A stretch of DNA of 63,606 nucleotides, filler included, from Candidatus Sysuiplasma jiujiangense (lineage in GTDB: Archaea; Thermoplasmatota; Thermoplasmata; Sysuiplasmatales; Sysuiplasmataceae): NCBI GenBank assembly GCA_019721075.1. It is 4 parts of 4 records of this genome, joined end to end, with 100 filler letters (N's around TTAATTAATTAA, not from the genome) between each part and the next. Parts side by side here need not be neighbours in the genome. Positions count along the whole stretch, not along the records: positions 1 to 18,677 come from JAHEAD010000024.1; 3 more parts are not named here. One strand, given 5' to 3'. Both the position numbers and the translations under genes were made by a program. Each line of letters begins with the position of its first letter. Within the stretch, counting starts at the first letter, position 1. Below, one piece after another: positions 1-19,825 of this stretch. The notes beneath the pieces are model-generated. The model was not told where the DNA came from, did not search any database, and saw nothing but the letters and a program-made list of their open reading frames with translations.

Positions 1-92
1 TTGGGAACCACTTCCATAATTAATATCCGAGATCTCAGGCCCTCGAGGGTGAGATCTCAGCTCTCCTGGGAAAAAATTCGGCGATTGATGAA

Positions 93-1097
93 TCAGAGTT
101 TCCCGGATATCTCGTTTATCAGCCACCTTGCGTTGTTCATAACCCTATCAAGGTTCTCCTTCCCGAAATCTTCTCCTTGGGACCTGGCATTATCAAGCCA
201 TCCCTTCATGTATGCCGATGAGTCGTCTTTGAAGTCAAACCCAAAATGCGAACCAACCATGTAAGTGGAAAGTTCCGCCTCAGATTCAGCGATCCCTCTT
301 GGCAGTTTCTTGTAAAGATGCTCTAGTCTTGCATGTGACATCTCGTGTATGAGAGTATGTAACATATTGGTGTCCTCTCCCGGTATTTTCATGACCACGA
401 TTTTCTGTCCTTCATCCGAATGCGCAGTATATCCTCTTGCACCGTTCTTTATGGAACCTTCCTCCACAGTGTAATGCTCTTTTGCTATCTTCTTCAGGAT
501 ACCATACAGTTTTGTCGCCTTGACGTCCTCCTCAACGGGCTTTCCCTTTCCCGGTATCACCAACGTTTGTGATATGTCATATACAGTACCGGTGCTGAAG
601 ACATGGGCGGAACCGCCTCCCTGGAGATTGAACTTCTCCTTCACCAGCTCATCTATGGCCTCATCGCTCAGCCCTTCTCTTCTCTTTTCTTCTATGAAGG
701 CTTTCACCTTCCCGGGACCGTCCTTCCCTGCGATGCCCACAGGATAGAGTACTGATATGGGGTTGGCATCATCCTTGACGTCCCTTCCGAAGTATTTCCA
801 CTCATTTCTTGACCTGACAATTGAGGGATTTGGGAACTGGTCCTGAATCAGTATTGAGTTGAATGCGGAATAATCTCCCAACGTGCCTGAGTATTTCCGC
901 ATCTGCAGCAGCAGCTGATCCACGCTTGTCACCTTGGAGAGATCTCCGAGGATTCCCCATGCTTCCCTTTCCAGATCCCTGACTGAAGGTCCCGGATTCT
1001 TGATCCGTATTTCCATCACGGTCCTGCTGCTATCCATCAGTATGTGCTTTTTCTCTTCTCCCTTTCCCTTTGTTATCCACTTCTTTGCCATTTTCAT
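93..1097 (-). CDS. ArdC-like anti-restriction/ssDNA-binding protein (ArdC-N plus HExxH zincin-like domain) with basic N-terminal tag
   Basis: YSAFNSILIQDQFP...EWKYFGRDVK (ArdC-N-like); TLIHEMSH...EAELSTY...SSAYMKGW; N-terminus KWITKGKGEEKKHI. Confidence 0.75.
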   Translation of the reverse strand: MKMAKKWITKGKGEEKKHILMDSSRTVMEIRIKNPGPSVRDLEREAWGILGDLSKVTSVDQLLLQMRKYSGTLGDYSAFNSILIQDQFPNPSIVRSRNEWKYFGRDVKDDANPISVLYPVGIAGKDGPGKVKAFIEEKRREGLSDEAIDELVKEKFNLQGGGSAHVFSTGTVYDISQTLVIPGKGKPVEEDVKATKLYGILKKIAKEHYTVEEGSIKNGARGYTAHSDEGQKIVVMKIPGEDTNMLHTLIHEMSHARLEHLYKKLPRGIAESEAELSTYMVGSHFGFDFKDDSSAYMKGWLDNARSQGEDFGKENLDRVMNNARWLINEISGKL

Positions 1098-1240
1098 TCC
1101 TCCTTTCTGTGCACGTTCTCAATTTCAGGTTTATCCGGATCCAGGGGATCCACGATTATGGCCTTGCCGTCCATTGACCATACCTGCCTTGCGTACTGCT
1201 TCCTGCTCTTTATCCTGTATTTTTCCTCCTCCGTCTTCAT
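1094..1240 (-). CDS. Small hypothetical protein (48 aa, MKTEEEKYRIKSRKQ...)
   Basis: Hand-translated; GGAGG SD; ATGA overlap with the ArdC-like gene; TATA-like box near 1303-1312. Confidence 0.6.
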   Translation of the reverse strand: MKTEEEKYRIKSRKQYARQVWSMDGKAIIVDPLDPDKPEIENVHRKEE

Positions 1241-1418
1241 TCTTTCAACCTCCAGTATTTAAACCGACCAAAAAATCGACCTAGGATCGCCGCTTGAATC
1301 ATGTATATATAATAATAGGAGAGCAACCGCCGCCACATGCCATTTCCCATCATTTTCCCCTGATATCACGGCTTCCGCGTGGCTGGCATGTAAGTGGCAC
1401 ATGCCGTCCGGCATGCCA

Positions 1419-2597
1419 TCATTCCTGGCTATCATCCTTGCTGTCCCCCTTCTTCCTGTCGCCGTCGTCTTCCAACTTCTTCTCTCCATGCTTTGCTACC
1501 CCCTCTGCAAGCCTCTCCATCAGGTCCTTCATTTCAGGCGTGATCTTATTGCCCTTGCGGATCATGCTCTCCGCCATGATGTCGAATATCTCCTCCTTTG
1601 TCATCCCAGGCCTGTACGGAGTGTTCATAGGATCGAAGGGATCCTCCTGCATGGTTCCCGCAACGTCTTTAACCACGTTGACGTGCTGCTCGCAGTTCGG
1701 GCACACAGTGCGCTTGGCACCGCCCGTATACGTCCAGGAATAGCCGCAGTGCCTGCACTTCACCTTCACGCCTGTTTCCTCCTTTTCCTCCAAATCCGAC
1801 ACATATATCCGGTGATCACAGTTTGGGCACCTCGCCACTGCCCTGTGGCCGGAATAGTCCCACTCATAACCGCACTCGTCACACTGGACCGATACGGCAG
1901 GCATTCCATTCTTTATCAGCAACCTGTCCCCGTTCAGCAGTTCCAGTTCCTCCTGGAACTCCCTGAACCTCGTCTCCATGTACTCCTTCTTCTTTGCCTC
2001 ATATTTCTCCCACAACTCCTTGGCGGGAAGCTGGAACTTGACCATCATGACCTTTATCTCCGATATCCCCCTGTGGATCCTCGGGAACTTTCCAAGGGGA
2101 CGTTCCGGGTCGAACGTGTTCCTTGAAAGCAGTTTCATCTTCATGACCCCCTGCACATCGGTCGATTCAAACCGTATGTGCACCAGTTTCCTGCTCTGTC
2201 TTTCAATGAACGTCTCGTCCGGAACTGTGATGAAGGTCAGTATCTGCTTGTACCTGAATCCCTGGGTGAGCATCCCGAAGACACGGGCAGACATCTCCTG
2301 CCACAACCTGGCGTTTATCCCCAGTCCGGCATCGTCGAACACTATGACCGACCCGGGAGGAAGCCCCTGGTTCACCAGCGCAAGGAAATCCTTCACGGTG
2401 AACACGATCCTGTCCACTGAGAAATTGGGGTCAACCCTCTCGGCAAGCCGTATGGATGACAGGGATTTCCCTGATCCCGTGTCGCCAATGAACAGTGCTA
2501 TGAGGTTGCGGTTCTTCTTTATCCGGTTGCGGATCCACTGCAGCAGCCACACGCTGTTTTTCATTGGATCGTCTTTGCCGCTCGTATTCCCCGTCAT
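1419..2597 (-). CDS. Zot/pI-like P-loop ATPase with C-terminal double Zn-ribbon
   Basis: Walker A GDTGSGKS, Walker B VIVFDD, FITVP...IERQSR; four CxxC; start moved to MTGNT (ATGA overlap, matches copy B). Confidence 0.8.
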   Translation of the reverse strand: MTGNTSGKDDPMKNSVWLLQWIRNRIKKNRNLIALFIGDTGSGKSLSSIRLAERVDPNFSVDRIVFTVKDFLALVNQGLPPGSVIVFDDAGLGINARLWQEMSARVFGMLTQGFRYKQILTFITVPDETFIERQSRKLVHIRFESTDVQGVMKMKLLSRNTFDPERPLGKFPRIHRGISEIKVMMVKFQLPAKELWEKYEAKKKEYMETRFREFQEELELLNGDRLLIKNGMPAVSVQCDECGYEWDYSGHRAVARCPNCDHRIYVSDLEEKEETGVKVKCRHCGYSWTYTGGAKRTVCPNCEQHVNVVKDVAGTMQEDPFDPMNTPYRPGMTKEEIFDIMAESMIRKGNKITPEMKDLMERLAEGVAKHGEKKLEDDGDRKKGDSKDDSQE

Positions 2598-2956
2598 ATT
2601 CCCTCCTCTCCCCCTTCCGTGTACGTCATGTTCTCGGGAATCATCAGGCCAAGACGCTTGTATAACCTTGACAATGAACCAAGCCATTCGTACAGTGCCT
2701 CGTAACCATCCACAATGTATTGCTCGGATGGATAGTTTCCTGACAGTTCCCGGATGTTCTTCTGTGCCAGCCTGTATTCCTGCAGGTACTCAGGATCGTG
2801 ATACGCGGACATGATCTGGTGCAGGGACTTCAGCTTCTTTCCCCAGCTGTATAAATTCCGGGGATTGTCTGCGGCTTCCCCGGGATATTCTGAAGCCTTG
2901 ACCAGCAGGTCATACAGCATCCTGAGGCCTTCGGGCGTTTCAGTATCACTCATCAT
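2594..2956 (-). CDS. Conserved helical hypothetical protein
   Basis: Ortholog of 37471-37830. Confidence 0.8.
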   Translation of the reverse strand: MMSDTETPEGLRMLYDLLVKASEYPGEAADNPRNLYSWGKKLKSLHQIMSAYHDPEYLQEYRLAQKNIRELSGNYPSEQYIVDGYEALYEWLGSLSRLYKRLGLMIPENMTYTEGGEEGI

Positions 2957-3203
2957 TGTCCCTCCTTGCAATGAATCTTAGTGTCCTGGGCATGTTTACG
3001 AGGCTTATTGCCGTCCTCTCATCGCTCATGGGCATTCTTTTCCCACCATCATCGAATATCATAGCCAGGGGCGGTGCCCTCTCTCCCTCGTCCTCCTCCT
3101 CTTTGTTTGCCTGGTAAAGGTGCTTTATGAACTCGTTCTCTCTCATCTCGGGCAGGGAGAAGAACAGGTCCCGGAAGGCGTGTTCCTTTCCCCAGTCCTT
3201 CAC
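2946..3203 (-). CDS. Conserved hypothetical protein (85 aa)
   Basis: GTGA-coupled start; ortholog of 37820-38077. Confidence 0.75.
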   Translation of the reverse strand: MKDWGKEHAFRDLFFSLPEMRENEFIKHLYQANKEEEDEGERAPPLAMIFDDGGKRMPMSDERTAISLVNMPRTLRFIARRDNDE

Positions 3204-4048
3204 GACGTTTCTTGCCGTGCGGCTTCACTCCTTTTCTTTATGAGCGCCTGGAGGTATTCCGGATTGCTGAGCAGCTCCTCCACCTCCTTCTCGTATATCT
3301 TGGTCTCCTCCTCCGTCAACCTCCCCTTCCTCAGGACAGACATTATGCTGTCCTTATGCGCTGAGGTGATGGCCCCAATGAGCTCCCTGGACTGTCTTGT
3401 GCCTTCAGTGATGCTCTTCACGTCCCCTGTCTGCTTCAGCTTCGCAACTTCCAGGAGTGCATCCTTGAGCATCGTCGTCAGGTCGTCGAGGACTGACACA
3501 AACATGGCATACTTTGCACGATTGTAGTGCGCCCAGGCGATCTCGACAAACCATGGGATGTTTGATCCCTCGAGGTATTTTATATCGGTGCACCAGTACG
3601 TTATCCTTCCATTTATGCGGCCCTGCTCAAGTGTCAGGCCGGTTTTCTTCTCAACAAGTGACCATATTTCATCGCTGACAAAGAGTCGATCCCAGTCCAT
3701 GAAGTCGGACGTGGGAACCATGATAAATACTCCGTTGCGGGTCCTGAGCGTTCTTGAGTAGAAATAAATCATGGGTACGTAGACCAGGACTGATACCAGT
3801 GTGTACGTGATGCCCACCAGGTCATACTCCACGTATGCCAGGATAACGCCGATGATGAGCTGAGGCAGCATCGCCCTCGCCAGCGACCGGAGGGATACGA
3901 ACTTCATGAGCCGCTGGATGTTCTCCCCAGATTTCGTTTCGAAGGCTTTCTTCAGCTCTTCCCTCCTCTCCTCCGCCGATCTCTGGGAATTCTCGAATGC
4001 GTTCTCTCTTCTCCGTTGAAAGAATCCCCTGCCCATTGCGTCCTTCAT
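3200..4048 (-). CDS. Two-TM membrane protein with C-terminal coiled coil
   Basis: Hydrophobic hairpin near aa 60-97; ortholog of 38074-38925. Confidence 0.85.
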   Translation of the reverse strand: MKDAMGRGFFQRRRENAFENSQRSAEERREELKKAFETKSGENIQRLMKFVSLRSLARAMLPQLIIGVILAYVEYDLVGITYTLVSVLVYVPMIYFYSRTLRTRNGVFIMVPTSDFMDWDRLFVSDEIWSLVEKKTGLTLEQGRINGRITYWCTDIKYLEGSNIPWFVEIAWAHYNRAKYAMFVSVLDDLTTMLKDALLEVAKLKQTGDVKSITEGTRQSRELIGAITSAHKDSIMSVLRKGRLTEEETKIYEKEVEELLSNPEYLQALIKKRSEAARQETS

Positions 4049-4884
4049 ATCCTGATGACCTCCCTTCTCTCCCTCTCCAGGAGGTATTTGCGGGCAGTGA
4101 AGAGCGCGATTATTATGGCGAACGCACTGGCAACGAAAGCCCTCGCGATTCCGTACTCGTACTGCGATAGGGTGTACTGGAGCGACGGCGGCTGCGGCCC
4201 ATAGTATTTCTGGATCGGTATTGTGGCAACAAGTTCGTTCGGGAACTTGTATACGGAATTCCCGAGGCCGATGGTCACAGTTGCCGTCGATCCGGAAATG
4301 TTGAACTGCACAATCTTCGAGCCATACACATTGCCGGAGAGGAGCTCCTGGCCGTTCAGGTATATGGAGTATGACTCGTTCTGGGTGCTCTGCATCGTCA
4401 CCGACCAGTCAGGATACATGAGTGCCCCTGCCGTGCCCGGTGCAACGGTCAGGAACTGGTCCTGTCCGGGGTACGAAGAGGATACGGACACGGACTGGAT
4501 AACCTTGTTTGACAGCGGCCCCGTGATAATATCGGCAAAGGTGTACGAAATCCCCTGGAAAACGAGTAACGCATTCGCAGGGGCACCCCCCGGCACGTTC
4601 CACACATACGTGAAATTGAATGCCCCCAGGGAATCTCCGGATTCCTTCACCGAGCCGTTGATCGAGAACGTGAAGGTACCGGATCCATACAGGTAGACAT
4701 GCCAGTCCGGATAAACCGAGACTCCGGAAGAATTGGCAGGCACATAGATGTATAAATCGGGATCCTGGTAAGTGGAATAAATGATGACATGTCCGGATGG
4801 AGTTGGAGATGCATCGACCACGGGAACGAATACAAGCCCAATAAGGGCTGTAAAAAGAAGAAGAGGCATTACGATTCGATTCAG
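4045..4884 (-). CDS. Secreted, C-terminally anchored protein with a duplicated beta domain; probable CTG start
   Basis: Signal peptide, YPDWHV/YPDWSV repeat, C-terminal TM; ortholog of 38922-39758. Confidence 0.8.
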   Translation of the reverse strand: MNRIVMPLLLFTALIGLVFVPVVDASPTPSGHVIIYSTYQDPDLYIYVPANSSGVSVYPDWHVYLYGSGTFTFSINGSVKESGDSLGAFNFTYVWNVPGGAPANALLVFQGISYTFADIITGPLSNKVIQSVSVSSSYPGQDQFLTVAPGTAGALMYPDWSVTMQSTQNESYSIYLNGQELLSGNVYGSKIVQFNISGSTATVTIGLGNSVYKFPNELVATIPIQKYYGPQPPSLQYTLSQYEYGIARAFVASAFAIIIALFTARKYLLERERREVIRI

Positions 4885-5177
4885 GGGTTTCTACCTCCTT
4901 CTTGAGGCTGTTTTGGCAGTATTCTAATTCGCTCGAGGAAGATCTTCCTCTTCAGGAATTCCTTTACCCTGATCCTCTTCTCCCTGATCCTCGAAGCGGT
5001 CAGGGACATGCCCATGATGATCCCGGAGGTTGCATTGGTCGCCGAACCGGAAGAGGGGAAGAAGAACTTGTGGAACATGCTCTCGATGGCTGGAAGATTC
5101 AGGCCAAGCCTTGTAAAGATCCACAGACCTATTATGAGGATGATGACTGCAATTGCCGCATCGGTGATCTTTCCCAT
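4881..5177 (-). CDS. Small membrane protein with basic C-terminus
   Basis: N-terminal TM; ortholog of 39755-40051. Confidence 0.8.
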   Translation of the reverse strand: MGKITDAAIAVIILIIGLWIFTRLGLNLPAIESMFHKFFFPSSGSATNATSGIIMGMSLTASRIREKRIRVKEFLKRKIFLERIRILPKQPQEGGRNP

Positions 5178-5181
5178 GATC

Positions 5182-6228
5182 TCACTCCATCCTTGGGGCT
5201 ATGATTCCCTTCACTTCGATGTGCTCACCATTTGGCCCTATCTTCCTTGTAGAAAACTCCACTGGATAGTCCCGCTTCATCCTGAGGGTCAGAACCGCCT
5301 CTTTTGGGTTCTGAAATTCATTCCTTCCCAGCATTGTCCGTATTGTTGATCGAAGATATTCTGTGGCGAAGGTTGCCTTCTCTGACGTAACCCATCCTGA
5401 TGGAACATCCCTGGGCTGCCTTGATGAAACTGCACTGACTGTTTCAATCAGCTCACGTTTCGGCTTGTATGAATCCGGATCATCAACAGACCTGTAGATT
5501 CCAACACTGGCCTTCTTTGTATCCCCTTCGAGCGAGAATCTCACTGTATCATCCTTTGTTTTCTGGAGGAAGTTCAGGAATGGCCTGAGCTGATCCCCTT
5601 CCAGCCTGACATCCCATGAATCTTGTTCGTAGTCCAGGGATGGCCAGCGAAGATTTGTTCCGCTTTTTGGCGGATTGTTCATCCATTCGGTTGAAAATTC
5701 CTTCCCATAGGATGTGGGATCAAGATATCCGTTTGGAAGATTGGTCTCCATGGTTTCCTGAATCATGGCAACATGTGACGGGTCCACGGATATGAAAGTC
5801 AGCGTGCCATTGTCAATGGTTATCTTCATGTTACCGGACGAAAAGAACATCTTCAGGTCCTCAGAATTCAGGTTCAGTTTTCCCCGCAGGTTGTCGATTC
5901 CGATGAGTTCCCGGACATCCACCTTATCGCCATAGGAAATGTTACGCTGTTTCGAGGGACCGGCTGCATTTTCCGTGGTTACTGATACGGGTTCAGGCGC
6001 TCTGGCCGGCTTCGCTGTCGCCGATGATTCTTGAAGCAGCATTCCTTCATACGGGGCGTAAAGGTCAAGCCTCTGGTTGGTCTTGATGAGCCTTGCCCTC
6101 TTGCCCTGCTTCCTCAGTTCCTGCACCTCATCGTATGCCAGGTTCCTTGGTACGCCGAACGCCTGCCTCTTCTTCACTGGATATATTTTCCTCTCCTTTC
6201 CCTTTCCTTTTGTTCTAAATTCTGTCAT
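5182..6228 (-). CDS. Divergent PCNA-like sliding clamp with tagged N-terminal extension
   Basis: SVDPSHVAMI, FATEYL, DYPVEF and terminal IIAPRME match PCNA signatures. Confidence 0.7.
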   Translation of the reverse strand: MTEFRTKGKGKERKIYPVKKRQAFGVPRNLAYDEVQELRKQGKRARLIKTNQRLDLYAPYEGMLLQESSATAKPARAPEPVSVTTENAAGPSKQRNISYGDKVDVRELIGIDNLRGKLNLNSEDLKMFFSSGNMKITIDNGTLTFISVDPSHVAMIQETMETNLPNGYLDPTSYGKEFSTEWMNNPPKSGTNLRWPSLDYEQDSWDVRLEGDQLRPFLNFLQKTKDDTVRFSLEGDTKKASVGIYRSVDDPDSYKPKRELIETVSAVSSRQPRDVPSGWVTSEKATFATEYLRSTIRTMLGRNEFQNPKEAVLTLRMKRDYPVEFSTRKIGPNGEHIEVKGIIAPRME

Positions 6229-6590
6229 TTCATTCTTCCTCCGATCCTCGTCTTTCCTCCTTCCTTGAATCCTCTTATATCGGCATAAAAAACAGAGGAG
6301 ACCTCTTTTCCGCTGCTGTAAAAGCTTGCTGCTTCCTCTCCTAGATATACTTGATTTATCCCAGACAAACGCATACCGTTGATGCTGAATTCTCTTGAAG
6401 GCCCCTTGAACTCAAACGGATCGTCATCGCTGTTCTCGAACCCGGATGATCTTATTATTTTGGCAACCTTTTGTGGTGCGAATTTCAATAAGTCCCTGGA
6501 ATTCACCCTTCGCTGAACCGAAAATTTTCTCTTCTCTATTGGCACTACCCTCTTCTTTCCGTTTTTCCTTACTGTCCTGAATGTTGTCAT
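6225..6590 (-). CDS. Tagged small basic protein
   Basis: MTTFRTVRKNGKKRVVPI; ortholog of 41130-41495. Confidence 0.8.
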   Translation of the reverse strand: MTTFRTVRKNGKKRVVPIEKRKFSVQRRVNSRDLLKFAPQKVAKIIRSSGFENSDDDPFEFKGPSREFSINGMRLSGINQVYLGEEAASFYSSGKEVSSVFYADIRGFKEGGKTRIGGRMK

Positions 6591-6914
6591 TTAATCCTCC
6601 TCAAACTTTCCCGTTGCCACATACGCAATGTCCGAATCGATCACTCTTTCCATCCTCTCGTTACCCTTATATTTTGATCTGAGCAGGGAGAGTTCCGCCA
6701 TTGTGTCAGCTTTGCCATATCTATCTACGGCTTTCCCCAGAGACCTCTTCCTGATATCATCCGCCAGGTCCACAGCATATCCTGCCAGGGACAGGCCATG
6801 GATGTGAATCTTCTTCAGGTCTGTCGTGCTGAGAACCTTGGATATCCCACTGAATCCGACACCTTTTCTCTTGGGATATGCTCTCCCGTCTTTCCTCCTT
6901 CCAAACTCAGTCAT
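6591..6914 (-). CDS. Tagged small basic helical protein (paralog of the next gene), putative DNA-binding
   Basis: LAGY...RKRSLGKAVDRYG...DIAYV; ortholog of 41498-41830. Confidence 0.8.
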   Translation of the reverse strand: MTEFGRRKDGRAYPKRKGVGFSGISKVLSTTDLKKIHIHGLSLAGYAVDLADDIRKRSLGKAVDRYGKADTMAELSLLRSKYKGNERMERVIDSDIAYVATGKFEED

Positions 6915-7251
6915 TTTTCTTCCCTCCCGATACATACCTTATGTCCTGCACTATCCTGGTCTTCAGCTCCGGCTTGTTGTAGTCCAGCCTGTACAACTCC
7001 CCGAGTTTCCGGAGCGTTTCCTTCTTCCCGTATTTTCCAATTGCCCTGTTCAATGCTGCATGCTTCGCGCCCTCCGTGCCGCTGATGTGATATCCCAATC
7101 CAGTGAGTGTCCCGGGATGCCTTATCCCCACTCCAGTCATGTCCTCGATCTGCTTCGGCGTCAGTTGCCTCTCCTTGCGGGTGATCCTGGTGCCCATTGG
7201 CACCACACTTTTCTTTCCGTTTTTCTTTATTGTCCTAAACTTTGTTCCCAT
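6907..7251 (-). CDS. Tagged small basic helical protein, putative DNA-binding
   Basis: MGTKFRTIKKNGKKSVVPM; GTLTGLGY...HAALNRAIGKYG...DIRYV; ortholog of 41823-42167. Confidence 0.8.
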   Translation of the reverse strand: MGTKFRTIKKNGKKSVVPMGTRITRKERQLTPKQIEDMTGVGIRHPGTLTGLGYHISGTEGAKHAALNRAIGKYGKKETLRKLGELYRLDYNKPELKTRIVQDIRYVSGGKKND

Positions 7252-7255
7252 TCTT

Positions 7256-10200
7256 TCACCTCTTCGTGTCCAGCTTGTATGTCTTGGTCTTGCCGCCGCT
7301 GGTAGCGACAACGTCTATGGGTGGCTTGCGCAGTTGTATGGCTGCTATCCCGATCCCTGCCAGTGTCAGCATGATAATGAGAAAGTTAGACAGGCCTCCG
7401 AAGAATGATATCAGTGTCCCAATTGTGAACGGGTTTGATGACAGGGAATTGGAGACAGAAAAGGGCATGACCATGGAATTGCTCGCAGAATTGTTGTTGA
7501 AAACAACCACCTTTATCCCGTACGTTCCCGAATCAAACTGTCCCTGGTTCATTGTGAGGTTGAAATATCCAATCTCCCCTGATGGCGTGTACGTGGAATT
7601 TATCGCTGTGGGGGAGTACATAGTGCTGCCGATGAAGGCTTCAACCGCCGTGATCCCATGCAGTGACTGCACCTTGATCGTGTAATAAGTCATAGGCCCA
7701 ACGGAGTGCTGCTCATAGGAAAGGACGATGCTGCTGTTCGTTCCCTGTGGTAGGACGCTGATGTATTGAGTTGAAGTCGAAGATGCCCCGAGACCATCGG
7801 TCACGGTGACTGATATGGTGTAGTTTCCCGCATGACTGAAGTAGAATAACACCGACTGCCCGGAATACGATGACCCGTTGATATCCCATGAATAGGAGAA
7901 GGTCGATGAGTCCGGCGCTGTGGCAGTGGCATTCAGGGAGAGCATGGTCCCAACGGGTATCTCCTTGGGGGGCGAGAATGAAATGGTTGGTTTGGCAGGT
8001 ATCATCCTCACTGTGAGGTCCTGAGTCCATGTTTTTCCGTTGTCGTAGGAGAATGTAGCGATCACAGGGTTGAACTCGTTGTATACAGGAAATTTGTAGC
8101 TTATGCTTAAGCCGGTGAGTGTCTGGCCATTTGGAAATGACCATGACATATTGTATGGGCCCTGGGCATCCCAATTAGGGGTGGCAGTGAAACGAAATAC
8201 CTGTGTGATGTTCAGGTTGGAAGAATAATTGAACTCAACAGGGGGAGGCAGGCTCTGTATGCTGATGTTCCTGGATCCGGTTGCTCCGTTTGCGCTAGAG
8301 ACGGTGAAATGAACAGAATAATTGCCCACAGGGAAAGAGTAAACGGGGTTCGGCAGCAGGGACGAGTGGTTTGGGGAGAAGGACCAGTTGTATGAGTATC
8401 CCGATCCACCCAGCACACTCGAACTGAACTGCACCGCCAGCGGTCCGAGACCGGATGTCTGGTTTGCGGCTATGGCGACGAAGAGGTGCACCTGGACTGT
8501 GAAATTCTGTGTGTCCACGTAACCGGATGAATCCGTTACCCTGGCCTCTATGGTATCGGGCCCGGATGACGAGAATACGTGCTGGATTGAAGTTCCGGAT
8601 TCTCTCTGCCCCGATGGGAAAATCCATGCTATGTTGTATGGGGCAATGCCGCCAGTCACATTGGCATATAATGGAAATTCCTCGGAAACTACAGCCTTTC
8701 CGGACCATGATACTGACACTGCCGGGTCACTGTATACTGTTACACTTACGGTAGATGATGCGTCCTTGCCGAATGAATCGGAAATGATGAGCTGAACCGT
8801 GTAATTGCCGGGAGTGGTGAATGAGTATGACACGGTTGCATTCTCATACATATGCCCGGCAATAAGCCATGTGTAACTGTAGGGCCCCACGCCTCCCGAT
8901 CCTGAAGACCGGAATGCATCCGTGACATTGGCATCAAGTAACGTCCTGGATGCTATTATGGATGCCACCGGGTATGATTCCACTGTGACGTCCAGGACAT
9001 GGGTTGAACTATCACCTTGGGAATCCTCCACAAGGAGCTTCACGGGATAAATTCCCGGCCTTGAGAATGAATAGTTAAGGGAGGATGCACTTCCGGAGAG
9101 GGAGCCGTTCACGTACCATGAGTATGAGTACCCCGGAGTGCCTCCTGTGATTACTGAGTTGAAGCTGTCAGTTACGTTGGGATCCACATTTGGGTACTGT
9201 GCAGATATCGTCACTGATGGAATGGAATTAATCCGGATCTCAATGGAAGAGGATGCCGAATTTCCAGCACCATCCGATACTTTCACTGTGACATTATAAT
9301 AACCTGACAGGCTGAAAGAATATATGAGATCCTGCTGGTACCCCACGTATCCGATGCCGGATATGGACCACGTGTAATTGTAGAATGGCGTCCCGCCCGA
9401 TATGGATGAATTGAAGTACACTGGAAATCCTATGTCCGTTGTAGTCCGGGATTCGGAGGGGGATACAACTGGCAGGGGTTTCACCGTGATATCCATGTAT
9501 GTGCTTGCCTTTGATCCCTGGCTGTCCACGATGAGCAGGGAAATATTATACGGGCCGGTTTTCGGGAAAGAATACTGGAAATACAGCCCGGATGAGGTGT
9601 TGACGCCATTCAGGTACCAGTAGTAGTTGTATGGGGCCGTACCATAGGACCCGAATCCTTCCCAGTACGTGGTCGTGGAAACATCCGTTTGGCTGGATCC
9701 CTCAATGAGTGCTGACGGTTTGGCAATCACCTTGATTGTGATAGACGATGCCGTTTGCTCGCCCAGGGAATCGGTTACCGTGAGGTTGACCGCGTATGAC
9801 CCGGGATCTGTGAATTGGAGGCGGAACTCCTGGGAGTAGTTTATGATCTTGCTGCCCAATGACCATGTATAATTGAAGGGTGAGCTCCCTCCGGTCACCT
9901 GGGCGAACAGCGTGTCATTTATCCCCTGATCCACGGTCGCATACTGGGCCTGTATGGACACCGTGGGGTCAGGGTTCACAACCTCGTTCACGGTATTTGA
10001 TGCCTGGTTTCCGCTGGCATCGGTGATTGTGAGCGATACAGTATATGTGCCGGAAGAGGTGAATGTGTAGTTCACATAGGAAGTGGTATACGCCTCACCG
10101 TTCACTGTCCATGCATACGTATAGCCTGGTGTCCCGCCGGATATGGATGCAGAGAAATTGACCCATATCCCGACGTCAGTAGGATTATGGACCACGTGAA

Positions 10201-12703
10201 TCACAACCGAAGGATCAGGGTTCACGGTCTCCGTAAGAGAGTAAGAAGCTGTATGGCCATCCCCGTCAGTGACGGTGACATTGACGTAGTATGATCCCGC
10301 CGAGGTGAAAGAGTAGGAGAATGCTGATGCGGTGGATTCCCGTACGCCATTTATGGTCCACGTATATGTGTCGGTGCCAGTCCCTCCAGAAACAACGGAA
10401 GAGAAGGATATGGAATTGCCAGCGTCAGTGGGGTTCTGCGAGCTGCTCACCGAAACAAGAGGGTTGTTGTTTATGGTAACGTTCACAGACGAGGAATACG
10501 TTTCGCCTAGGCTATCAGTTACTGTAATTTCGACAACATAGAACCCTGCGGAACTGAATGAGTAGGTAAAGTCTTGAGACGTGGACACCTGCGTTCCATT
10601 TATGATCCACGAATATGCATAGGGTGCCGTCCCTCCTGATGGGCTGGATGAAAAAGTTATATTATACCCGACATCCGCCGAACTGACTGAGGAGGATGCG
10701 GATACTATTGGATCGGAGTGCACGGTTTCGGATGTCGTGGCAGTTGCTGTTTCACCTGCCCCATCTGTTATGGACAGATCCTCGGTATATGATCCAGCTG
10801 CCAGGGTGGTGTTGAACGCAGGGGTCGTATAGGTGGACCCGGTACCTGTAAGGCTGTAAGTGTAGCCTGTGCCTGTCCCACCCATAACCGCTGTCAGGAA
10901 GAACTGCGGCACCGCCGCATCGGTGGTGCTCACGATGGGTGGGGTGCCGGAGACGGAGATTGATCCACCCGTAATATTCAGGGCGGACATTGATGCGCCG
11001 CCGCCCAGGTTCCCATTGTCAACTGCAAAGAAATACCATCCTGCCGAGAGTGTTTCCGTACCTGAATAAGCCGTAGCTCCTTGACTGACCCACGCACTGC
11101 TTCCGATGATGGATGTCCAGTCCACCCCGTTGTTGGATATGAACATTGCCCCGTTGTCGTCATATTCGCCATTAAACGTGTAAGTCCCGGCAGCGAAATA
11201 GAGCACCGTTACAGCCATGTACCCTTCATCGTATGCACCACCACTTGGCTCTGTATTCAGGACACCCAGTGATGAAGGGTATGCCACGTTGGGCCGACCA
11301 AGGAAGGACTGCCCGTTGTAATATGGATTTCCGTAGTCAAACCCGAATCCACCGTCATTGAACGTGCCCGTCCAGGTTGACACGTTGTTCGGGAAGGAGT
11401 TTGGCATCGACAGCGGGTAGGAACTGATGTCGGAATACGGAACAGCCCCCTCTGTCGGCCCTGAGGTGTACGAATATACGTAGAATACGCCCGGAGTCAT
11501 CGCATTGATGATGGCTGCCTGCGGATCGGGGTAAACGATCTGAGTCAGGGATGGGCTTTGAGCGGTATAACCATTAGTATCCGTGATGACCACATATACT
11601 GAATTTGATCCACCGGATGTGAAGTCCTCTGTCCACTGGCTGCTTGACGTGGACTGCACCGAATTCCCATTGAGATAGAAGTTGTAGTTGCTGTAGGAGC
11701 CGGAACCGCCAGAACCAGAAGCCGTGAACACAACATTCTGCCCCACATCTGACGGATTCAAATTTGAGGTTATCGAGACTCCGAGAGTGGGGTCAATTGT
11801 TTCCGCGAATGTCGGTGACGTGCCGGTCAAGCCAGAGGATGTGGCCACCACGTAGAAGTCATATGGACTTGAGGAAGAGGAAGATTCTGATGTTGTGTAT
11901 GTAGACCCCGTGGCACCCGAAATTGCCGTTCCTGATCCTGATGCACCGGAGTACCACTGATAAGTGTATGACCCTGAGCCGCCGGTTGCCGATGCGGTGA
12001 GGGTGAACTGCTGGCCGACATCGGCTGGATTTTGGCTTGAACTGACGGAAACGACAACGGGGTTCTCGACAACCTGGGTGTATGAATTGGATGCGGAACC
12101 AGCGTCTGTGGAAATCGACAGTGAAATGGTATATGACCCTGCAACTGAGTCCGTCCATGTCGGGTTGGATGCAGTTGTGCTTGAGAGAGATCCTGCGGAT
12201 GCGCTCCATGAGTATGCCCCTCCGTTCACATCTTCGAAGTTCGCATTGGACGATAAGTCGACTGTCCCGGATGTCACAACCGGGTTCGGGGAGCCCGATA
12301 CCGACGTGAGCGATGGGGCGACAGGGGACCCTGAATAATCGCTGGGATATGTTCCGGCGGTTCCCGAGGTGCCTCCGGAGACAGAATATCCCGGGACGCC
12401 ACCCAATGACCAGCTTATGGTCGGCGACGTCGATGGGTTCCTCAGTGTCACTTGGTATGTGATAGTACCACCGGGTGCAGCGCTTCCATAGCCGCCTATG
12501 GACCATGACGAGATCTCGGTAGACAGGCCTGATTCATCCCATGTCCATGTGTATGTAGTAGTCGTCGTGTCCGGGTTGTATGCAGCGATCTGCTTTTCCG
12601 CCGGGGCAAGCGTGATCAGGAGCATGAGGGATACAAATATCAGTGCAATGGGAACGACGTACCTTTTCCTGCCGTTCAGGGCACGGGCAATGATGGATTT
12701 CAT
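7256..12703 (-). CDS. Giant PKD/Ig-repeat surface protein (1815 aa) with a PA14-like insert
   Basis: N-terminal signal, many GGTxPYxYxW...GxYxVxLxVxD repeats, C-terminal TM and short tail. Confidence 0.9.
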   Translation of the reverse strand: MKSIIARALNGRKRYVVPIALIFVSLMLLITLAPAEKQIAAYNPDTTTTTYTWTWDESGLSTEISSWSIGGYGSAAPGGTITYQVTLRNPSTSPTISWSLGGVPGYSVSGGTSGTAGTYPSDYSGSPVAPSLTSVSGSPNPVVTSGTVDLSSNANFEDVNGGAYSWSASAGSLSSTTASNPTWTDSVAGSYTISLSISTDAGSASNSYTQVVENPVVVSVSSSQNPADVGQQFTLTASATGGSGSYTYQWYSGASGSGTAISGATGSTYTTSESSSSSSPYDFYVVATSSGLTGTSPTFAETIDPTLGVSITSNLNPSDVGQNVVFTASGSGGSGSYSNYNFYLNGNSVQSTSSSQWTEDFTSGGSNSVYVVITDTNGYTAQSPSLTQIVYPDPQAAIINAMTPGVFYVYSYTSGPTEGAVPYSDISSYPLSMPNSFPNNVSTWTGTFNDGGFGFDYGNPYYNGQSFLGRPNVAYPSSLGVLNTEPSGGAYDEGYMAVTVLYFAAGTYTFNGEYDDNGAMFISNNGVDWTSIIGSSAWVSQGATAYSGTETLSAGWYFFAVDNGNLGGGASMSALNITGGSISVSGTPPIVSTTDAAVPQFFLTAVMGGTGTGYTYSLTGTGSTYTTPAFNTTLAAGSYTEDLSITDGAGETATATTSETVHSDPIVSASSSVSSADVGYNITFSSSPSGGTAPYAYSWIINGTQVSTSQDFTYSFSSAGFYVVEITVTDSLGETYSSSVNVTINNNPLVSVSSSQNPTDAGNSISFSSVVSGGTGTDTYTWTINGVRESTASAFSYSFTSAGSYYVNVTVTDGDGHTASYSLTETVNPDPSVVIHVVHNPTDVGIWVNFSASISGGTPGYTYAWTVNGEAYTTSYVNYTFTSSGTYTVSLTITDASGNQASNTVNEVVNPDPTVSIQAQYATVDQGINDTLFAQVTGGSSPFNYTWSLGSKIINYSQEFRLQFTDPGSYAVNLTVTDSLGEQTASSITIKVIAKPSALIEGSSQTDVSTTTYWEGFGSYGTAPYNYYWYLNGVNTSSGLYFQYSFPKTGPYNISLLIVDSQGSKASTYMDITVKPLPVVSPSESRTTTDIGFPVYFNSSISGGTPFYNYTWSISGIGYVGYQQDLIYSFSLSGYYNVTVKVSDGAGNSASSSIEIRINSIPSVTISAQYPNVDPNVTDSFNSVITGGTPGYSYSWYVNGSLSGSASSLNYSFSRPGIYPVKLLVEDSQGDSSTHVLDVTVESYPVASIIASRTLLDANVTDAFRSSGSGGVGPYSYTWLIAGHMYENATVSYSFTTPGNYTVQLIISDSFGKDASSTVSVTVYSDPAVSVSWSGKAVVSEEFPLYANVTGGIAPYNIAWIFPSGQRESGTSIQHVFSSSGPDTIEARVTDSSGYVDTQNFTVQVHLFVAIAANQTSGLGPLAVQFSSSVLGGSGYSYNWSFSPNHSSLLPNPVYSFPVGNYSVHFTVSSANGATGSRNISIQSLPPPVEFNYSSNLNITQVFRFTATPNWDAQGPYNMSWSFPNGQTLTGLSISYKFPVYNEFNPVIATFSYDNGKTWTQDLTVRMIPAKPTISFSPPKEIPVGTMLSLNATATAPDSSTFSYSWDINGSSYSGQSVLFYFSHAGNYTISVTVTDGLGASSTSTQYISVLPQGTNSSIVLSYEQHSVGPMTYYTIKVQSLHGITAVEAFIGSTMYSPTAINSTYTPSGEIGYFNLTMNQGQFDSGTYGIKVVVFNNNSASNSMVMPFSVSNSLSSNPFTIGTLISFFGGLSNFLIIMLTLAGIGIAAIQLRKPPIDVVATSGGKTKTYKLDTKR

Positions 12704-13014
12704 GCCACCCCCCCCACCACGGGCAGGTCATGCACAATCATGCCCATTATCAGTACGATGGAAATGAATAAGGCGAGCAGGATGACAAATATAGGCAACG
12801 CAAACGGTCCCATGGATGCGGCCACCGACACGAATGATGCCATGACTCCGGAAATAACCCCAAAAATAACGCTGAGCATTAAGTTAAACAGTTCAGCCAG
12901 GTAGTACAGGGACATTGCAAAAAAGTACAGGATGATCTGTATGACGTTGTTAATGGCATCCAGCGGGTTCAGCCATGAGATCAGGGAAGGCGGGCTCACC
13001 CCATAATATGACAT
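12700..13014 (-). CDS. Small hydrophobic protein (coat/pilin-like paralog 3)
   Basis: Hydrophobic helices; ortholog of 48628-48942. Confidence 0.8.
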   Translation of the reverse strand: MSYYGVSPPSLISWLNPLDAINNVIQIILYFFAMSLYYLAELFNLMLSVIFGVISGVMASFVSVAASMGPFALPIFVILLALFISIVLIMGMIVHDLPVVGGVA

Positions 13015-13292
13015 TATTCACTCACCATATCCTTTATCGGGACCGTGAAGGAGAATACCAGGAACAATCCTACCAATGTCATGCCTCCCGATGCCACAAT
13101 GATTGTTGGGGCCAGGAATCCGTAATTCCCCTGCCATGCATTGAATACCGAGACAAAATCCCCTGTCACTGAATGAAATAGTGGCAGGATCAGGGTATTT
13201 TCCAGATCCGAGAGGAGGTTCTGGAAGAACGCATATAGAACCTTCAGGAACCCCCAGAGGGGGGACGACTGAATGGCAGAGGCTATGGACAT
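13014..13292 (-). CDS. Small hydrophobic protein (coat/pilin-like paralog 2)
   Basis: YGFLAP...PIKDMV; ortholog of 48942-49220. Confidence 0.8.
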   Translation of the reverse strand: MSIASAIQSSPLWGFLKVLYAFFQNLLSDLENTLILPLFHSVTGDFVSVFNAWQGNYGFLAPTIIVASGGMTLVGLFLVFSFTVPIKDMVSE

Positions 13293-13299
13293 TCATGCC

Positions 13300-13683
13300 T
13301 CACACATCGTCTTCCATGCTCACGAGATCCCTCATTGGCCCCACAAGGGCAAGTATCAGGAAACCAGCAAGCAAAGCGATCCCAATGCCGAAGACAAACA
13401 TCAGGGGGCCGTAGACTCCATACCCGGCTAACGAAAAACCGAATCCCTGGAACATGATATTGATGGAGTTGGAGAACCCGGAGAATATGCCTCCGAACAT
13501 TGTTCCCAGTCCGTTGACTATTACCTGCAGGAAGCCCATCAGGAGATTCCATATGCTGTTGAAAACGGTACTGCCCAGCGAGGATGAGGACGTGGCCATG
13601 GGAATGAAGGTCAGGGAGAAAATAGAGATCTTCATCCTCGCCTTCCTGATTTTCTTCACATGGAATATGAGCCGGTTTAACAT
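13300..13683 (-). CDS. Small hydrophobic protein with basic leader (coat/pilin-like paralog 1)
   Basis: Start MLNRL after a GGGAGGG SD; YGVYGP...PMRDLV; ortholog of 49232-49609. Confidence 0.8.
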   Translation of the reverse strand: MLNRLIFHVKKIRKARMKISIFSLTFIPMATSSSSLGSTVFNSIWNLLMGFLQVIVNGLGTMFGGIFSGFSNSINIMFQGFGFSLAGYGVYGPLMFVFGIGIALLAGFLILALVGPMRDLVSMEDDV

Positions 13684-13684
13684 C

Positions 13685-14914
13685 TCACTTCCCTCCCTTC
13701 TTCGCCGAATTCTGCCTGTCGAACACGCCGATGTCGTACCACGGAGCCACGAGTATGGCAGCAACGAATGTGAATATGGTGCCTATGAGGTACCCGGTCT
13801 GCTCTGCACTGTAAGACCCGATGATGGTCGTTAGGCCTGTGTTGCCATACACGTGGAAGCTGATTGATATGCTCGTAACGTTGCTCTGAACGAGGATCAT
13901 GATGTTCTCTGACTGATTTCCCGTCAGGGATGATGATGAAATCGAAAAGGAGACTGACGTTAGGTTTTTCAGTGACTGGTATGCGAACGGCTCGAAACTT
14001 GATACGTTGAAACCCGTACCCAGTGAAACGTTTGCGGGATGCGAATCAGTAGAAGATATAGATATCTTGGACACTGCGAAGTTGTTCAGCTCCGCAACGG
14101 TGAGGTTGGTACGGATCCATACCTGGTTTGAGTATGAGGTGACGTTGTTCACTGTACTGGATGGGAAATCAAAGGTCGCCGTTCCGTTGACCTGGCCAAA
14201 GGGTATCGCCCCAGAGGATCCGTAAACGTACGAGGTGATGGACTCGGATTGGAGCACCGAGGAATTGTCGGTTCCCGCTACAAGGGCATGGCCGATCCCC
14301 GCAGAGAGGAAAATCATGAGGAAGACGGATATGAGGGCGATAAACAGCCCTAAGAACTTTCGGGCCGCCTTCCCTGATCCGGATTCCTTAAAATTGAGGG
14401 ATTTTACCTTTGGTCCTTTCTGTCCCATATATCCCTTCCTGTCAGACCAGGCTGCATCCCATATGACAACGAGACCGAAAACCAGTATGGATACCAGGTA
14501 CAGTACGGCTGCCTCGTTGCCGTTGAACGCGGGCACGATGATGTACTGGGCAAAGCCAAATTCGTATCCCAGGAAACCGCCGATGAATCCTCCAAGGACA
14601 AAGCCAGCGAATGCCCGCCAGATTAGATCCAGGATGCTCTTCCCGGGTGGCGTCAGGGTTTCGATAACGGCCCAGACGACAGCCCCAAATATGATCGCCG
14701 GGGCAATTATCCCATCATTGAATACAACAACATGACCGACTATGGTATACGTGGGTCTTGCCAGCAGGCCAACAAAAAGCATGAGGGTCGCAAGCAGCCC
14801 TATGACCAGTTCGCCGATTCTCCATTTGCCCACGTGGGTCGGGATGTTCTTTTTCGTCTTTCCAGAACTCTTTGCCGGGTTGCCGGCTTTTGAACCTTTA
14901 TTTTTCTTTGCCAT
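13685..14914 (-). CDS. Polytopic membrane protein with extracellular beta domain and C-terminal TM
   Basis: About 5 N-terminal TMs, N-x-S/T-rich domain; ortholog of 49611-50840. Confidence 0.85.
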   Translation of the reverse strand: MAKKNKGSKAGNPAKSSGKTKKNIPTHVGKWRIGELVIGLLATLMLFVGLLARPTYTIVGHVVVFNDGIIAPAIIFGAVVWAVIETLTPPGKSILDLIWRAFAGFVLGGFIGGFLGYEFGFAQYIIVPAFNGNEAAVLYLVSILVFGLVVIWDAAWSDRKGYMGQKGPKVKSLNFKESGSGKAARKFLGLFIALISVFLMIFLSAGIGHALVAGTDNSSVLQSESITSYVYGSSGAIPFGQVNGTATFDFPSSTVNNVTSYSNQVWIRTNLTVAELNNFAVSKISISSTDSHPANVSLGTGFNVSSFEPFAYQSLKNLTSVSFSISSSSLTGNQSENIMILVQSNVTSISISFHVYGNTGLTTIIGSYSAEQTGYLIGTIFTFVAAILVAPWYDIGVFDRQNSAKKGGK

Positions 14915-14986
14915 CTCTACTTCTCCCCCACGGAAGAAGCGGAGCCTGAACTCACGGAAATTAGCATCCGCCTCTCCGTAAGTTCA
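14915..14986 (-). promoter_or_regulatory. Structured RNA leader (12-bp hairpin, pseudoknot, alternative SD-sequestering hairpin)
   Basis: Stem 14947-14958/14975-14986 with one G-U pair on the minus strand; same architecture at 50841-50917. Confidence 0.6.
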
Positions 14987-15283
14987 CTTACCCTTACGAC
15001 GTCCTTCATTAAATAGAACACTCTTCTTGTATCGAGATCCCCTCGAAGCAGTTCGCAGGTGAATCACATCAACCCGACCCATTTCCCCAAGACCCCGTAA
15101 GATTTTCTGGACACGGTAGATGGATGACCTACTGGAATCACTCAAGTATCCATCTCGGACCAGGATCGTGGTAATTCTTTTACAAGAGAATGACAAATTC
15201 GGATACCTGTCAAGAACAGAGAACACTCTCTGTTCCTCTTCAGACAGCAGCGACCTCCTTTCCTCTGGCGACTGTAACTGCAT
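14984..15283 (-). CDS. Putative winged-helix DNA-binding protein
   Basis: Basic 99 aa with LSEEEQRVF...RVQKILRGL...GRV pattern; coupled to the upstream gene. Confidence 0.5.
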   Translation of the reverse strand: MQLQSPEERRSLLSEEEQRVFSVLDRYPNLSFSCKRITTILVRDGYLSDSSRSSIYRVQKILRGLGEMGRVDVIHLRTASRGSRYKKSVLFNEGRRKGK

Positions 15284-15822
15284 TATTTCGATACTTTATC
15301 ACCATCCTTGCTTTCAGTATCTGGAGCTGTATCCGGACCCCACGTCAGCTCTATTTCACAGGATCCAAGGAGCAGCTTCTCGTTCTTCTTGCAGCTCCTG
15401 ACCAGGCTCCTCTTTCCCGCCGGACCAACGGAATACAGGACAAACTGGTACTTGTTCCGGCTGTACGACAGGAGATATTTCTCTCTCTCGGGGTTAACGT
15501 TTTGGGTTAACGGATTGACGGATTCATGCGTTAACCTTTTAGATGGCCTATTGAAAATGAATTCTGATGGCTTTCCCGGAATACGGAGCTGCTGGAAGTG
15601 TTCGCACTTCTCCACAGGCCTGAATGATCTCTTCGGGTCCATCTGGTTATGTAAGATGCAGACAGGGCAGATTCCCATCCAGTATCCATCCTCGTAGGAA
15701 CCGGAGACCTGGGACGTCCTTCCCCGGTTAACGGGTTTACGGTTAACAGGGTTAACGTTAACCTTGTGAGCTCTTCTCTGTCTCATGTACTCTGCCATCT
15801 TTGCTGGGTCCTTGTAGGGCAT
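15283..15822 (-). CDS. Hypothetical protein with MPYKDP...EYMR start, VN repeats and CxxC/CxH
   Basis: ORF track; stop/start coupling. Confidence 0.7.
   Translation of the reverse strand: MPYKDPAKMAEYMRQRRAHKVNVNPVNRKPVNRGRTSQVSGSYEDGYWMGICPVCILHNQMDPKRSFRPVEKCEHFQQLRIPGKPSEFIFNRPSKRLTHESVNPLTQNVNPEREKYLLSYSRNKYQFVLYSVGPAGKRSLVRSCKKNEKLLLGSCEIELTWGPDTAPDTESKDGDKVSK
15493..15762. repeat. Cluster of seven GTTAAC palindromes
   Basis: GTTAAC at 15493, 15506, 15530, 15727, 15742, 15751 and 15757; GTTTAC variant at 15735. Confidence 0.8.
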
Positions 15823-19773: not shown

Positions 19774-19825
19774 ATTACCTTCGCCAGAGGATTCATTCGC
19801 TGTCGCAGAGGGCCGGTTAAGAGGG

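Follow-up and report, generated by a model that had tools for sequence, protein, structure and literature searches.

Spindle- and lemon-shaped viruses of archaea are the closest described systems for the locus presented here, a conserved gene block that occurs in two diverged copies in a 63,606-base stretch of DNA (hereafter the window) from the draft assembly GCA_019721075.1 of Candidatus Sysuiplasma jiujiangense (Thermoplasmata). Sources given by PMC number are cited here and below for individual passages. The Haloferax virus LSV-48N is a purified lemon-shaped virus whose open reading frames (ORFs) are described in the cited passages as resembling no known capsid protein (PMC12714723). It is placed in the proposed Almyrocitroviridae, the member Tebi-SV1 of which shows a 14-bp attachment site (att) at a transfer RNA (tRNA) and a large Ig-like transmembrane (TM) protein (PMC13612827). 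The capsid protein VP1 of spindle-shaped viruses is an alpha-hairpin (PMC9351363), and budding of SSV1 demonstrates non-lytic release through the membrane (PMC5021807). We regard it as rather probable that the block in question serves virion morphogenesis in double-stranded DNA (dsDNA) viruses or virus-like elements, temperate and non-lytic, that make up an undescribed family in acidophilic Thermoplasmata. To our knowledge no virus has been isolated from acidophilic Thermoplasmatales.

Three N44-TTAATTAATTAA-N44 linkers split the window into four contigs of one draft assembly (2.29 Mb in 55 contigs, rated 97% complete with 1.8% contamination), hence the copies A and B reside on the separate contigs C17 and C19. 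In the labels used here C denotes contigs, G compared genomes (G000 being this assembly) and L compared loci. An overview is given in Table 1. Two collinear, diverged copies had been proposed in a first-pass annotation based on the sequence, and blastp bears this out: all 15 genes of copy A (15/15) find their best match in copy B in the same order. Protein identity between the copies ranges from 40% (348-aa basic protein) to about 90% (ATPase, 241 aa present). In between are the polytopic membrane protein (87%), the anchored beta protein (83%), three small hydrophobic proteins (81, 68 and 69%), the protein with two TM segments (2-TM protein, 77%), the 98-aa TM protein (67%) and two small acidic proteins (51 and 70%). 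The four basic proteins show 72, 74, 60 and 40%, the giant protein with PKD repeats 50% over 1244 aa.

Further partial copies are found in the same assembly on C27, C40 and C47. C27 covers the polytopic protein through the PKD giant with 79-88% identity to the block, and its left end is 95% identical to C17 7220-7519. C40 and C47 hold variants of the PKD giant. Moreover, Logan contigs of four sequencing runs end at the same conserved/variable borders as the block copies. The multiple copies in the assembly read as several co-assembled variants and are not assigned to one cell. As for the extent of the block, the order of the 15 genes initially delimited stands. The conserved set is wider: on the downstream side of the ATPase it continues with a 16th gene (93-1097), and upstream of the block it includes a gene of 179 aa (15283-15822); both accompany the block in other genomes.

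Table 1. Contigs, block copies and genes of the window. Positions count along the whole window.
Feature	Position	Strand	Remarks
Contig a (C17)	1-18677		holds copy A
Contig b (C18)	18778-36653		everyday metabolic and transporter genes
Contig c (C19)	36754-52580		holds copy B
Contig d (C24)	52681-63606		37% GC, small unknown ORFs
Linkers N44-TTAATTAATTAA-N44	18678-18777, 36654-36753, 52581-52680		adjacency across linkers biologically meaningless
Copy A, 15 genes	1419-14914	minus	gene order from 14914 down to 1419
Copy B, same 15 genes	36754-50876	minus	ATPase cut by contig start; PKD giant 2151 aa
ArdC-like protein, 334 aa	93-1097	minus	16th block gene, outside the span of the first-pass annotation
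P-loop ATPase, about 391 aa	1419-2594 (ORF runs to 2687)	minus	spindle-virus 'DnaA-like'/B251 family (by sequence)
Two small acidic soluble proteins	2594-3203	minus	120 aa, isoelectric point 4.8; 85 aa, isoelectric point 5.1
2-TM protein, 282 aa	3200-4048	minus	hydropathy
Anchored surface protein, 274 aa	4045-4869	minus	AlphaFold2 (AF2) model, predicted local distance difference test (pLDDT) 84.2
Basic protein, 98 aa	4881-5177	minus	isoelectric point 11.5, one N-terminal TM segment; sequence, hydropathy
Four basic soluble proteins (348, 121, 107, 114 aa)	5182-7251	minus	isoelectric points 9.2-10.4, shared N-terminal tag
Acidic surface giant, 1815 aa	7256-12703	minus	PF18911, E 1.6e-66
Three paralogous small hydrophobic proteins (104, 92, about 111 aa)	12700-13641	minus	frames fixed by homology
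Polytopic membrane protein, 409 aa, basic	13685-14914	minus	hydropathy
Upstream small genes of copy A (99, 179, 256, 84, 148, 133 aa)	14984-17779	minus	variable region apart from the 179-aa gene; no family matches

The ATPase provides the link to described viruses. It exhibits a Walker A (GDTGSGKS) and a Walker B motif (VFDDAG), two C-terminal zinc ribbons (Pfam zinc-ribbon matches) and no TM segment by hydropathy. PHROGs assigns it to phrog_5484, 'DnaA-like replication initiation protein' (E 6.6e-12). A tblastn search of 50,697 phage and archaeal-virus records yields four matched records, the best being LSV-48N (31% identity, E 7e-18); the other three are fusellovirus records, namely SSV3 and two accessions of Sulfolobales Mexican fusellovirus 1. 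In total 159 homologs of the ATPase were found. Using a 29-sequence family profile as query, hhalign aligns the ATPase of LSV-48N (99.6%, E 5e-24), B251 of SSV1 (92.9%, E 3.8e-7, 185 columns) and ORF16 of His1 (83.8%, E 7.9e-6). In the passages cited, the respective arCOG is counted among the virus-associated genes of archaeal dark-matter islands (PMC4158269), and a Fuselloviridae-type ATPase is reported in an 'E-plasma' genome with no element described there (PMC10354927). Judged by sequence, the ATPase is a member of the 'DnaA-like' family of lemon-/spindle-shaped archaeal viruses. Thus one block gene maps onto known virus families, and the element is a member of none of them.

The hhalign comparison comprised 11 block families against LSV-48N, SSV1 and His1, five of them also against the pleolipovirus HRPV-1; the 98-aa TM protein (tm98), two tagged proteins (bas121 and bas114), one hydrophobic paralog (hyd92), the PKD giant and the upstream small genes lay outside this set. 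A pleomorphic membrane-vesicle virus of the Pleolipoviridae or close kin would account for a loose likeness in gene content, that is small membrane proteins, C-terminally anchored spike-like proteins and an NTPase. The hosts lack a rigid wall, which we count in favour of it. However, VP8 of HRPV-1 reaches only 1.4% (E 0.037) with the ATPase profile, none of the five families exceeds 4.2% against HRPV-1 ORFs, and the elements described below have 26-35 kb compared to 7 kb of HRPV-1. Kinship to pleolipoviruses is in our view decidedly improbable.

The initial label of the ATPase was Zot/pI-like. A P-loop ATPase it is indeed, but of the B251 type: M13 pI reaches 4% (E 0.01), and Pfam Zot does not match the window ATPase itself. 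Since Zot is matched by 10 of the 29 members of the family alignment (best E 6.7e-8) and not by the window ATPase, 'Zot-like' describes a superfamily resemblance at most. These relatives are one argument for a filamentous element resembling inoviruses, with a Zot/pI-type ATPase for extrusion. The small hydrophobic coat-like proteins and the C-terminally anchored adhesin, which recall pVIII and pIII, are another, and archaeal inovirus-like proviruses have been proposed, Methanosarcinaceae and Aenigmarchaeota being the only archaeal hosts named in the passages cited (PMC6813254). Nevertheless we consider such an element very improbable, as the ATPase of the window shows neither a Zot match nor a TM segment and its similarity to M13 pI is marginal. 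Moreover, the coat candidates have 92-113 aa and two hydrophobic helices, compared to the criterion of 30-90 aa and one TM domain in the passages cited (PMC6813254). No rolling-circle Rep is found in the parts scanned, the elements of genome G133 carry an MCM helicase, and a size of 26-35 kb argues in the same direction.

The block is part of a mobile, tRNA-integrating element and not a fixed chromosomal operon. Within the order, the ATPase probe matches 2 of 10 genomes, one of which is this assembly. In a 401-genome sample of the class, 37 match at E <=1e-5, many of them over the zinc ribbons only. More than 60% identity over the ATPase domain is reached in four genomes (G302, G182, G133 and G344; 67-81%), all belonging to another family, f18. 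G133, which consists of one contig, exhibits an 18,976-bp direct repeat of 99.9% identity. Each repeat copy contains the complete block with the ArdC-like gene, in addition to small ORFs and a gene for a 673-aa MCM helicase (PF00493, E 4e-43); a variable region and then a tyrosine integrase follow. DNA identity between the two integrases is 86%. A 14-nt core, AGGATAGGTTGGGA, is located at the left end of copy 1, at the unit junction and at the 3' end of tRNA-Cys past the contig origin. The three sites hence indicate that one tRNA gene harbours two elements in tandem, 29,432 bp and about 25.8 kb long.

A second case is found in G401 (L059, on a 556-kb contig), where the last 12 nt of tRNA-Pro together with the next 33 nt recur 35,262 bp away with 95.6% identity. 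The block lies between these repeats, with one integrase next to the tRNA and another past the second att. Intact integrase ORFs (350, 326 and 341 aa) adjoin att in G133 and G401. The G401 element has no MCM and carries an intein-bearing DUF5131 protein, an HNH nuclease and a radical-SAM protein. In G401 and at locus L058 the GC content is 0.47-0.50 in the block and 0.33-0.42 in the flanks. No tRNA was found in the window, and its own contigs show neither an integrase nor element ends, which is why we infer integration of the window's block from these relatives. The first 10 kb of the window are near-identical in 20 runs from 8 studies (mine tailings, mine drainage and sediments), three runs of one study being a possible origin of the window, and pieces of the window without any differences also occur in a run of another study.

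The patchy distribution, the att, tRNA and integrase bounds and the GC discordance in the relatives speak against a fixed surface-structure operon, which according to the first-pass annotation would have contradicted its proposal. The corresponding explanation would be a host chromosomal surface-structure or adhesion operon duplicated within the genome; the glycosylated PKD adhesin and the membrane proteins would suit it, and the GC content of the block equals that of the assembly. We hold this for extremely improbable, given that 8 of the 10 genomes of the order lack the block, that its closest relatives belong to another family, that its borders in G133 and G401 are marked by tRNA genes, att repeats and integrases and that its GC content is discordant with the flanks in two genomes.

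The three small hydrophobic paralogs are, by analogy, candidate shell proteins. Their genes (13300-13641, 13014-13292 and 12700-13014) were framed by homology to a relative; the longest-ORF frames 13018-13296 and 13283-13552 proved wrong, masking two of the three paralogs. After reframing, the three paralogs noticed initially are confirmed by mutual alignment and by a family hidden Markov model (HMM), which recovers all nine copies on C17, C19 and C27 (E 3e-13 to 5e-34). According to the alignment each consists of a long helix, a nearly invariant Gly, a TM helix and an acidic tail. The family comprises 122 representative clusters among 1.84 billion proteins. An AF2 monomer is predicted with a pLDDT of 93 as essentially one long helix, and structural matches of the model stop near the conserved Gly60.

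The remaining membrane and surface proteins were evaluated by sequence, hydropathy and models. Six TM segments are predicted for the 409-aa polytopic protein, five N-terminal and one C-terminal, together with an extracytoplasmic Ser/Asn-rich domain with 9 sequons; its identity across relatives is 35-88%. The PKD giant has a signal or anchor at its N-terminus, at least eight PKD/Ig-like repeats and a TM anchor at its C-terminus; its N-glycosylation sequons number 41. No other block gene varies as much (28-79% identity among elements). The 274-aa protein combines a signal helix, two tandem Ig-like beta-sandwiches, a C-terminal TM helix and 5 N-glycosylation sequons. In Foldseek its model retrieves generic tandem Ig folds only; its homologs number 95, and all organism-named ones are from acidophilic Thermoplasmatales archaea. 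In the 282-aa protein two adjacent TM segments (residues 55-94) are located between charged helical flanks, with 54-84% identity in most relatives and 31% in one element. The two small acidic proteins are found directly upstream of the ATPase in all relatives and are conserved in sequence. Neither they nor the polytopic protein match a family in Pfam, PHROGs or NCBIfam, or virus ORFs by hhalign. The 282-aa protein has no family match either, and an Atlas search returned its own cluster alone. Likewise, the hydrophobic paralogs, the PKD giant, the Ig-like protein and the tagged basic proteins show no tie to known virus families.

The four basic proteins share a tag of about 20 N-terminal aa, [FW][RI]T..K.GK...V.P, ahead of C-terminal domains that are unrelated or paralogous. 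Cross-matches among them are limited to the N-termini. The tag expression matches 8 of 12,687 ORFs of the assembly, 7 of them on the block contigs C17, C19 and C40, a result that indicates specificity and is not an independent test, the expression having been written post hoc. Between one and four tagged basic genes are found per element. The 348-aa protein (bas348, 5182-6228) was considered as a relative of sliding clamps, which is unsupported: a profile search of PDB found no clamp. The leads were a 30-residue NCBIfam match (E 3e-6) and Atlas neighbours that carry PCNA_N or gp45, with scores <0.9.

The 16th gene also encodes a variant of the tag at its N-terminus. Its product shows a predicted single-stranded DNA (ssDNA) binding N domain followed by a zincin metalloprotease with an invariant HEMSH motif and is by this ArdcN-plus-HExxH-zincin architecture ArdC-like. 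Both Pfam domains are sub-threshold matches (MPTase-PolyVal in 6 of 6 members, ArdcN in 4 of 6), and a pairwise alignment reaches E 5e-17 with HExxH aligned. By tblastn the protein matches 1868 plasmid records with up to 98% cover and 25-31% identity, annotated as ArdC-like ssDNA-binding. These plasmids are mostly from Firmicutes and include 17 of Haloarcula and 16 of Natrinema. The gene follows the ATPase in G133, G302, G344, L058, L059 and L061. Bacterial ArdC relatives are delivered together with DNA to counter restriction.

In the parts visible to it, the first-pass annotation recognised no VirB4/VirD4, relaxase, terminase, portal or jelly-roll gene. None appears in the Pfam, PHROGs and NCBIfam scans of contig a, whose ORFs yield nothing there beyond PKD, the zinc ribbons, phrog_5484 and NYN. 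This lack of terminase, portal and jelly-roll genes, combined with membrane-helix, glycosylated and basic proteins and a spindle-type ATPase, fits a membrane-assembled, non-lytic particle. Collinearity, mobility, tRNA integration, the homology of the ATPase and the ArdC-like protein and the protein architectures are established, and from them we infer a particle with the following roles. The three hydrophobic paralogs would enter the cytoplasmic membrane and polymerise into the particle shell. The element DNA would be bound by the basic tagged proteins and condensed and loaded at the membrane, the B251-type ATPase assisting. The PKD giant, the Ig-like and the polytopic protein, held by C-terminal hydrophobic helices, may form a glycosylated host-recognition end or surface. 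The particle would then exit by budding or extrusion without lysis, as fuselloviruses do. The N-terminal tag might mark proteins travelling with the DNA, including the ArdC-like protease, which could blunt host defences on entry. That the tag is a packaging signal loading four to five unrelated proteins, the ArdC-like one included, into the particle of a new family whose shell is unrelated in sequence to known capsids is a tentative proposal that we ourselves rather doubt. If true, such co-packaging would parallel, in archaea and with split genes, the 'polyvalent protein' strategy of bacteria.

Several results weigh against a virion. The 10 non-ATPase families compared remain unmatched against the ORFs of LSV-48N, SSV1 and His1 by hhalign (best 6.9%). 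In particular, the hydrophobic family reaches 0.7% with VP3 of SSV1 and 0.2% with VP21 of His1, that is no capsid homology, and its profile has no solved capsid or pilin match among PDB sequences at E up to 10. The AF2 model retrieves 0 matches in Foldseek and generic long helices alone in VIA (Z <=6.5); since it consists of a single long helix, such searches carry no information on the alpha-hairpin of spindle viruses. IMG/VR contains no relative for the queries used, i.e. the ATPase, the polytopic protein and the alignments A4 and A1. The sole CRISPR array of the assembly (C1:10891-12010, 36-nt repeat, 15 spacers) has 0 of 15 spacers matching any element locus examined. As for circular forms, which the first-pass annotation had suggested looking for, contigs of four runs over 1-18677 contain no circular junction, and their joints look like variants. 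Finally, 1036 of the 1868 plasmids with an ArdC match are typed conjugative.

The latter point also argues for a non-viral DNA-transfer element, in which the membrane module is a contact-dependent or vesicle-based transfer apparatus. In that case the hydrophobic proteins would be pilin- or channel-like, the PKD giant would mediate adhesion in mating, and the DNA would be accompanied by the ArdC-like protein on export. In accordance with this, the ArdC-like gene is constant in the block and giant adhesins and polytopic membrane proteins suit mating machines too; the missing capsid homology and the lack of relatives in IMG/VR are likewise to its credit. However, among the 23 ORFs of contig a no VirB4/HerA-type ATPase, VirD4/FtsK, relaxase or Ced/Ted component is matched, the sole ATPase comes from a family otherwise known in spindle-shaped viruses, and the hydrophobic family has no match to solved pilins. 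Hence we consider a transfer apparatus unlikely and retain the virion-morphogenesis module as the probable nature of the block. A new virus- or plasmid-like family, as proposed initially, is upheld insofar as the element is mobile, lacks conjugation hallmarks and is undescribed; searches of the open full-text literature (without subscription journals and supplements) found no description of such Thermoplasmata elements. The proposal needs correction with respect to the ATPase, which does map to known viruses.

Some observations concern the surroundings of the block and its relatives. Of the upstream genes of copy A, the 179-aa one alone is clearly conserved in other elements, while the 133-aa one is weakly conserved (25-27% identity in one other element). 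Directly upstream of copy B, 51001-52395 encodes a Rad3/XPD/DinG-type helicase (phrog_2488, E 1e-33) which aligns to the 579-position profile from about position 171 onward. In copy A this place is taken by unrelated small genes. The helicase could serve replication of the element or be a host gene. At the end of contig a, 18154-18677 encodes an NYN-domain ribonuclease (PF01936, E 4.5e-34) truncated where the contig stops. Contigs of four runs show it at 5-20x the depth of the block (130-614 compared to about 22-30), therefore it represents repeated or widely shared sequence where the assembly broke. In G302 (C32:2226-3500, L041) a deletion derivative is found, having lost the structural genes between polytopic and 2-TM protein, with an in-frame fusion of the N-terminal half of the former and the C-terminal half of the latter. 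The DUF5131 gene of G401 (C4:85612-87570, L065:613-2571) is phage Gp37/Gp68-like and interrupted by an intein with a LAGLIDADG domain.

Elsewhere in the assembly, C14:4000-23145 (L051) contains a distant analogue of the block with two integrases, a 1595-aa giant, a 387-aa membrane protein, three small hydrophobic proteins (111, 73 and 75 aa) and a 207-aa beta protein. The HMM of the hydrophobic family matches here with E 9e-4, that of the anchored protein with E 1.5e-4. A chromosomal island at C1:286000-299500 exhibits a distant ATPase relative (33% identity; family HMM E 9e-35), a 464-aa secreted protein, a serine recombinase-like gene and uneven GC content, and is possibly a decayed related element. 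Contig d (10.9 kb) differs from the rest in GC content (37% compared to about 50% elsewhere), and its small unknown ORFs are crowded on one strand. It encodes a HerA-like fragment at 58640-59242. Over 99 nt the two ends of the contig are reverse complements of each other, which is either a k-mer artefact or points to a linear element of a different host with inverted terminal repeats.

The block represents a recognisable and widespread marker set for finding such elements, apparently overlooked by automated virus callers. With it the ATPase family of spindle-shaped viruses reaches into a new host class, and a new candidate family of shell proteins is added, as is a putative protein-targeting tag that the ArdC-like counter-defence protein also carries. 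Experiments could start from at least one complete genome, in which two intact-looking tandem copies are present.

Compared to known systems, the block differs from type IV secretion systems and from Ced/Ted in that a VirB4/HerA-type ATPase, a coupling protein and a relaxase are unmatched in contig a, as is a VirB2-like pilin. The ArdC anti-restriction proteins and the polyvalent proteins of conjugative plasmids and phages resemble the product of 93-1097 in the ArdcN-plus-zincin architecture and HExxH, aligned over 98% of the length. The latter is, in contrast, a stand-alone archaeal protein with an element-specific tag, encoded in a structural block, where export or packaging may be presumed. 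Inoviridae share membrane-inserted small coats, an anchored adhesin and a P-loop assembly ATPase, distant relatives of the ATPase here matching Zot, whereas the elements described here are of the dsDNA type with an MCM helicase (G133). With tRNA-integrating archaeal proviruses the elements of G133 and G401 have the att repeats at the tRNA 3' end and the tyrosine integrase in common.

Among the spindle-shaped viruses, His1 (Halspiviridae) resembles the block by the homology of its ORF16 ATPase and, according to the annotation of its record, by proteins with signal plus C-terminal anchor and small proteins with 2-3 TM segments. Similarity to VP21 is not found in the block, however, and the linear genome of His1 is replicated by protein priming with a type B polymerase; no such polymerase is seen in the elements here. 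In Fuselloviridae (SSV1) the VP1/VP3 family differs, being undetectable in the block by hhalign. The SSV integrase is split upon integration, unlike the intact ones beside att in G133 and G401, and the elements here are about twice as large, with MCM or other replication modules. Common to both are the homologous 'DnaA-like' B251 ATPase and, judged from the genes alone, paralogous small hydrophobic candidates (cf. VP1/VP3) and basic proteins (cf. VP2). The passages cited on fuselloviruses add a large glycosylated end protein, temperate tRNA integration and probable exit through the membrane (PMC9351363, PMC5021807). Moreover, VP4 and B210 of SSV19 are described there as ending in hydrophobic helices (PMC9351363), as the PKD giant and the beta-sandwich protein do.

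LSV-48N has a haloarchaeal host, in contrast to the acidophilic Thermoplasmata here. The 10 non-ATPase families tested against it by hhalign stay at <=4.5%, and the PKD giant, the tag family, the ArdC-like gene and the two zinc ribbons of the ATPase set the block apart from it. Even so, its ATPase is homologous over the whole P-loop domain, two small acidic genes are located directly upstream of the ATPase as in the block, and in both, small hydrophobic 2-TM proteins are numerous and accompany giant surface proteins. Tebi-SV1 of the same proposed family integrates at a tRNA 3' end with a 14-bp att according to the passages cited (PMC13612827), just as the elements described here integrate at tRNA genes.

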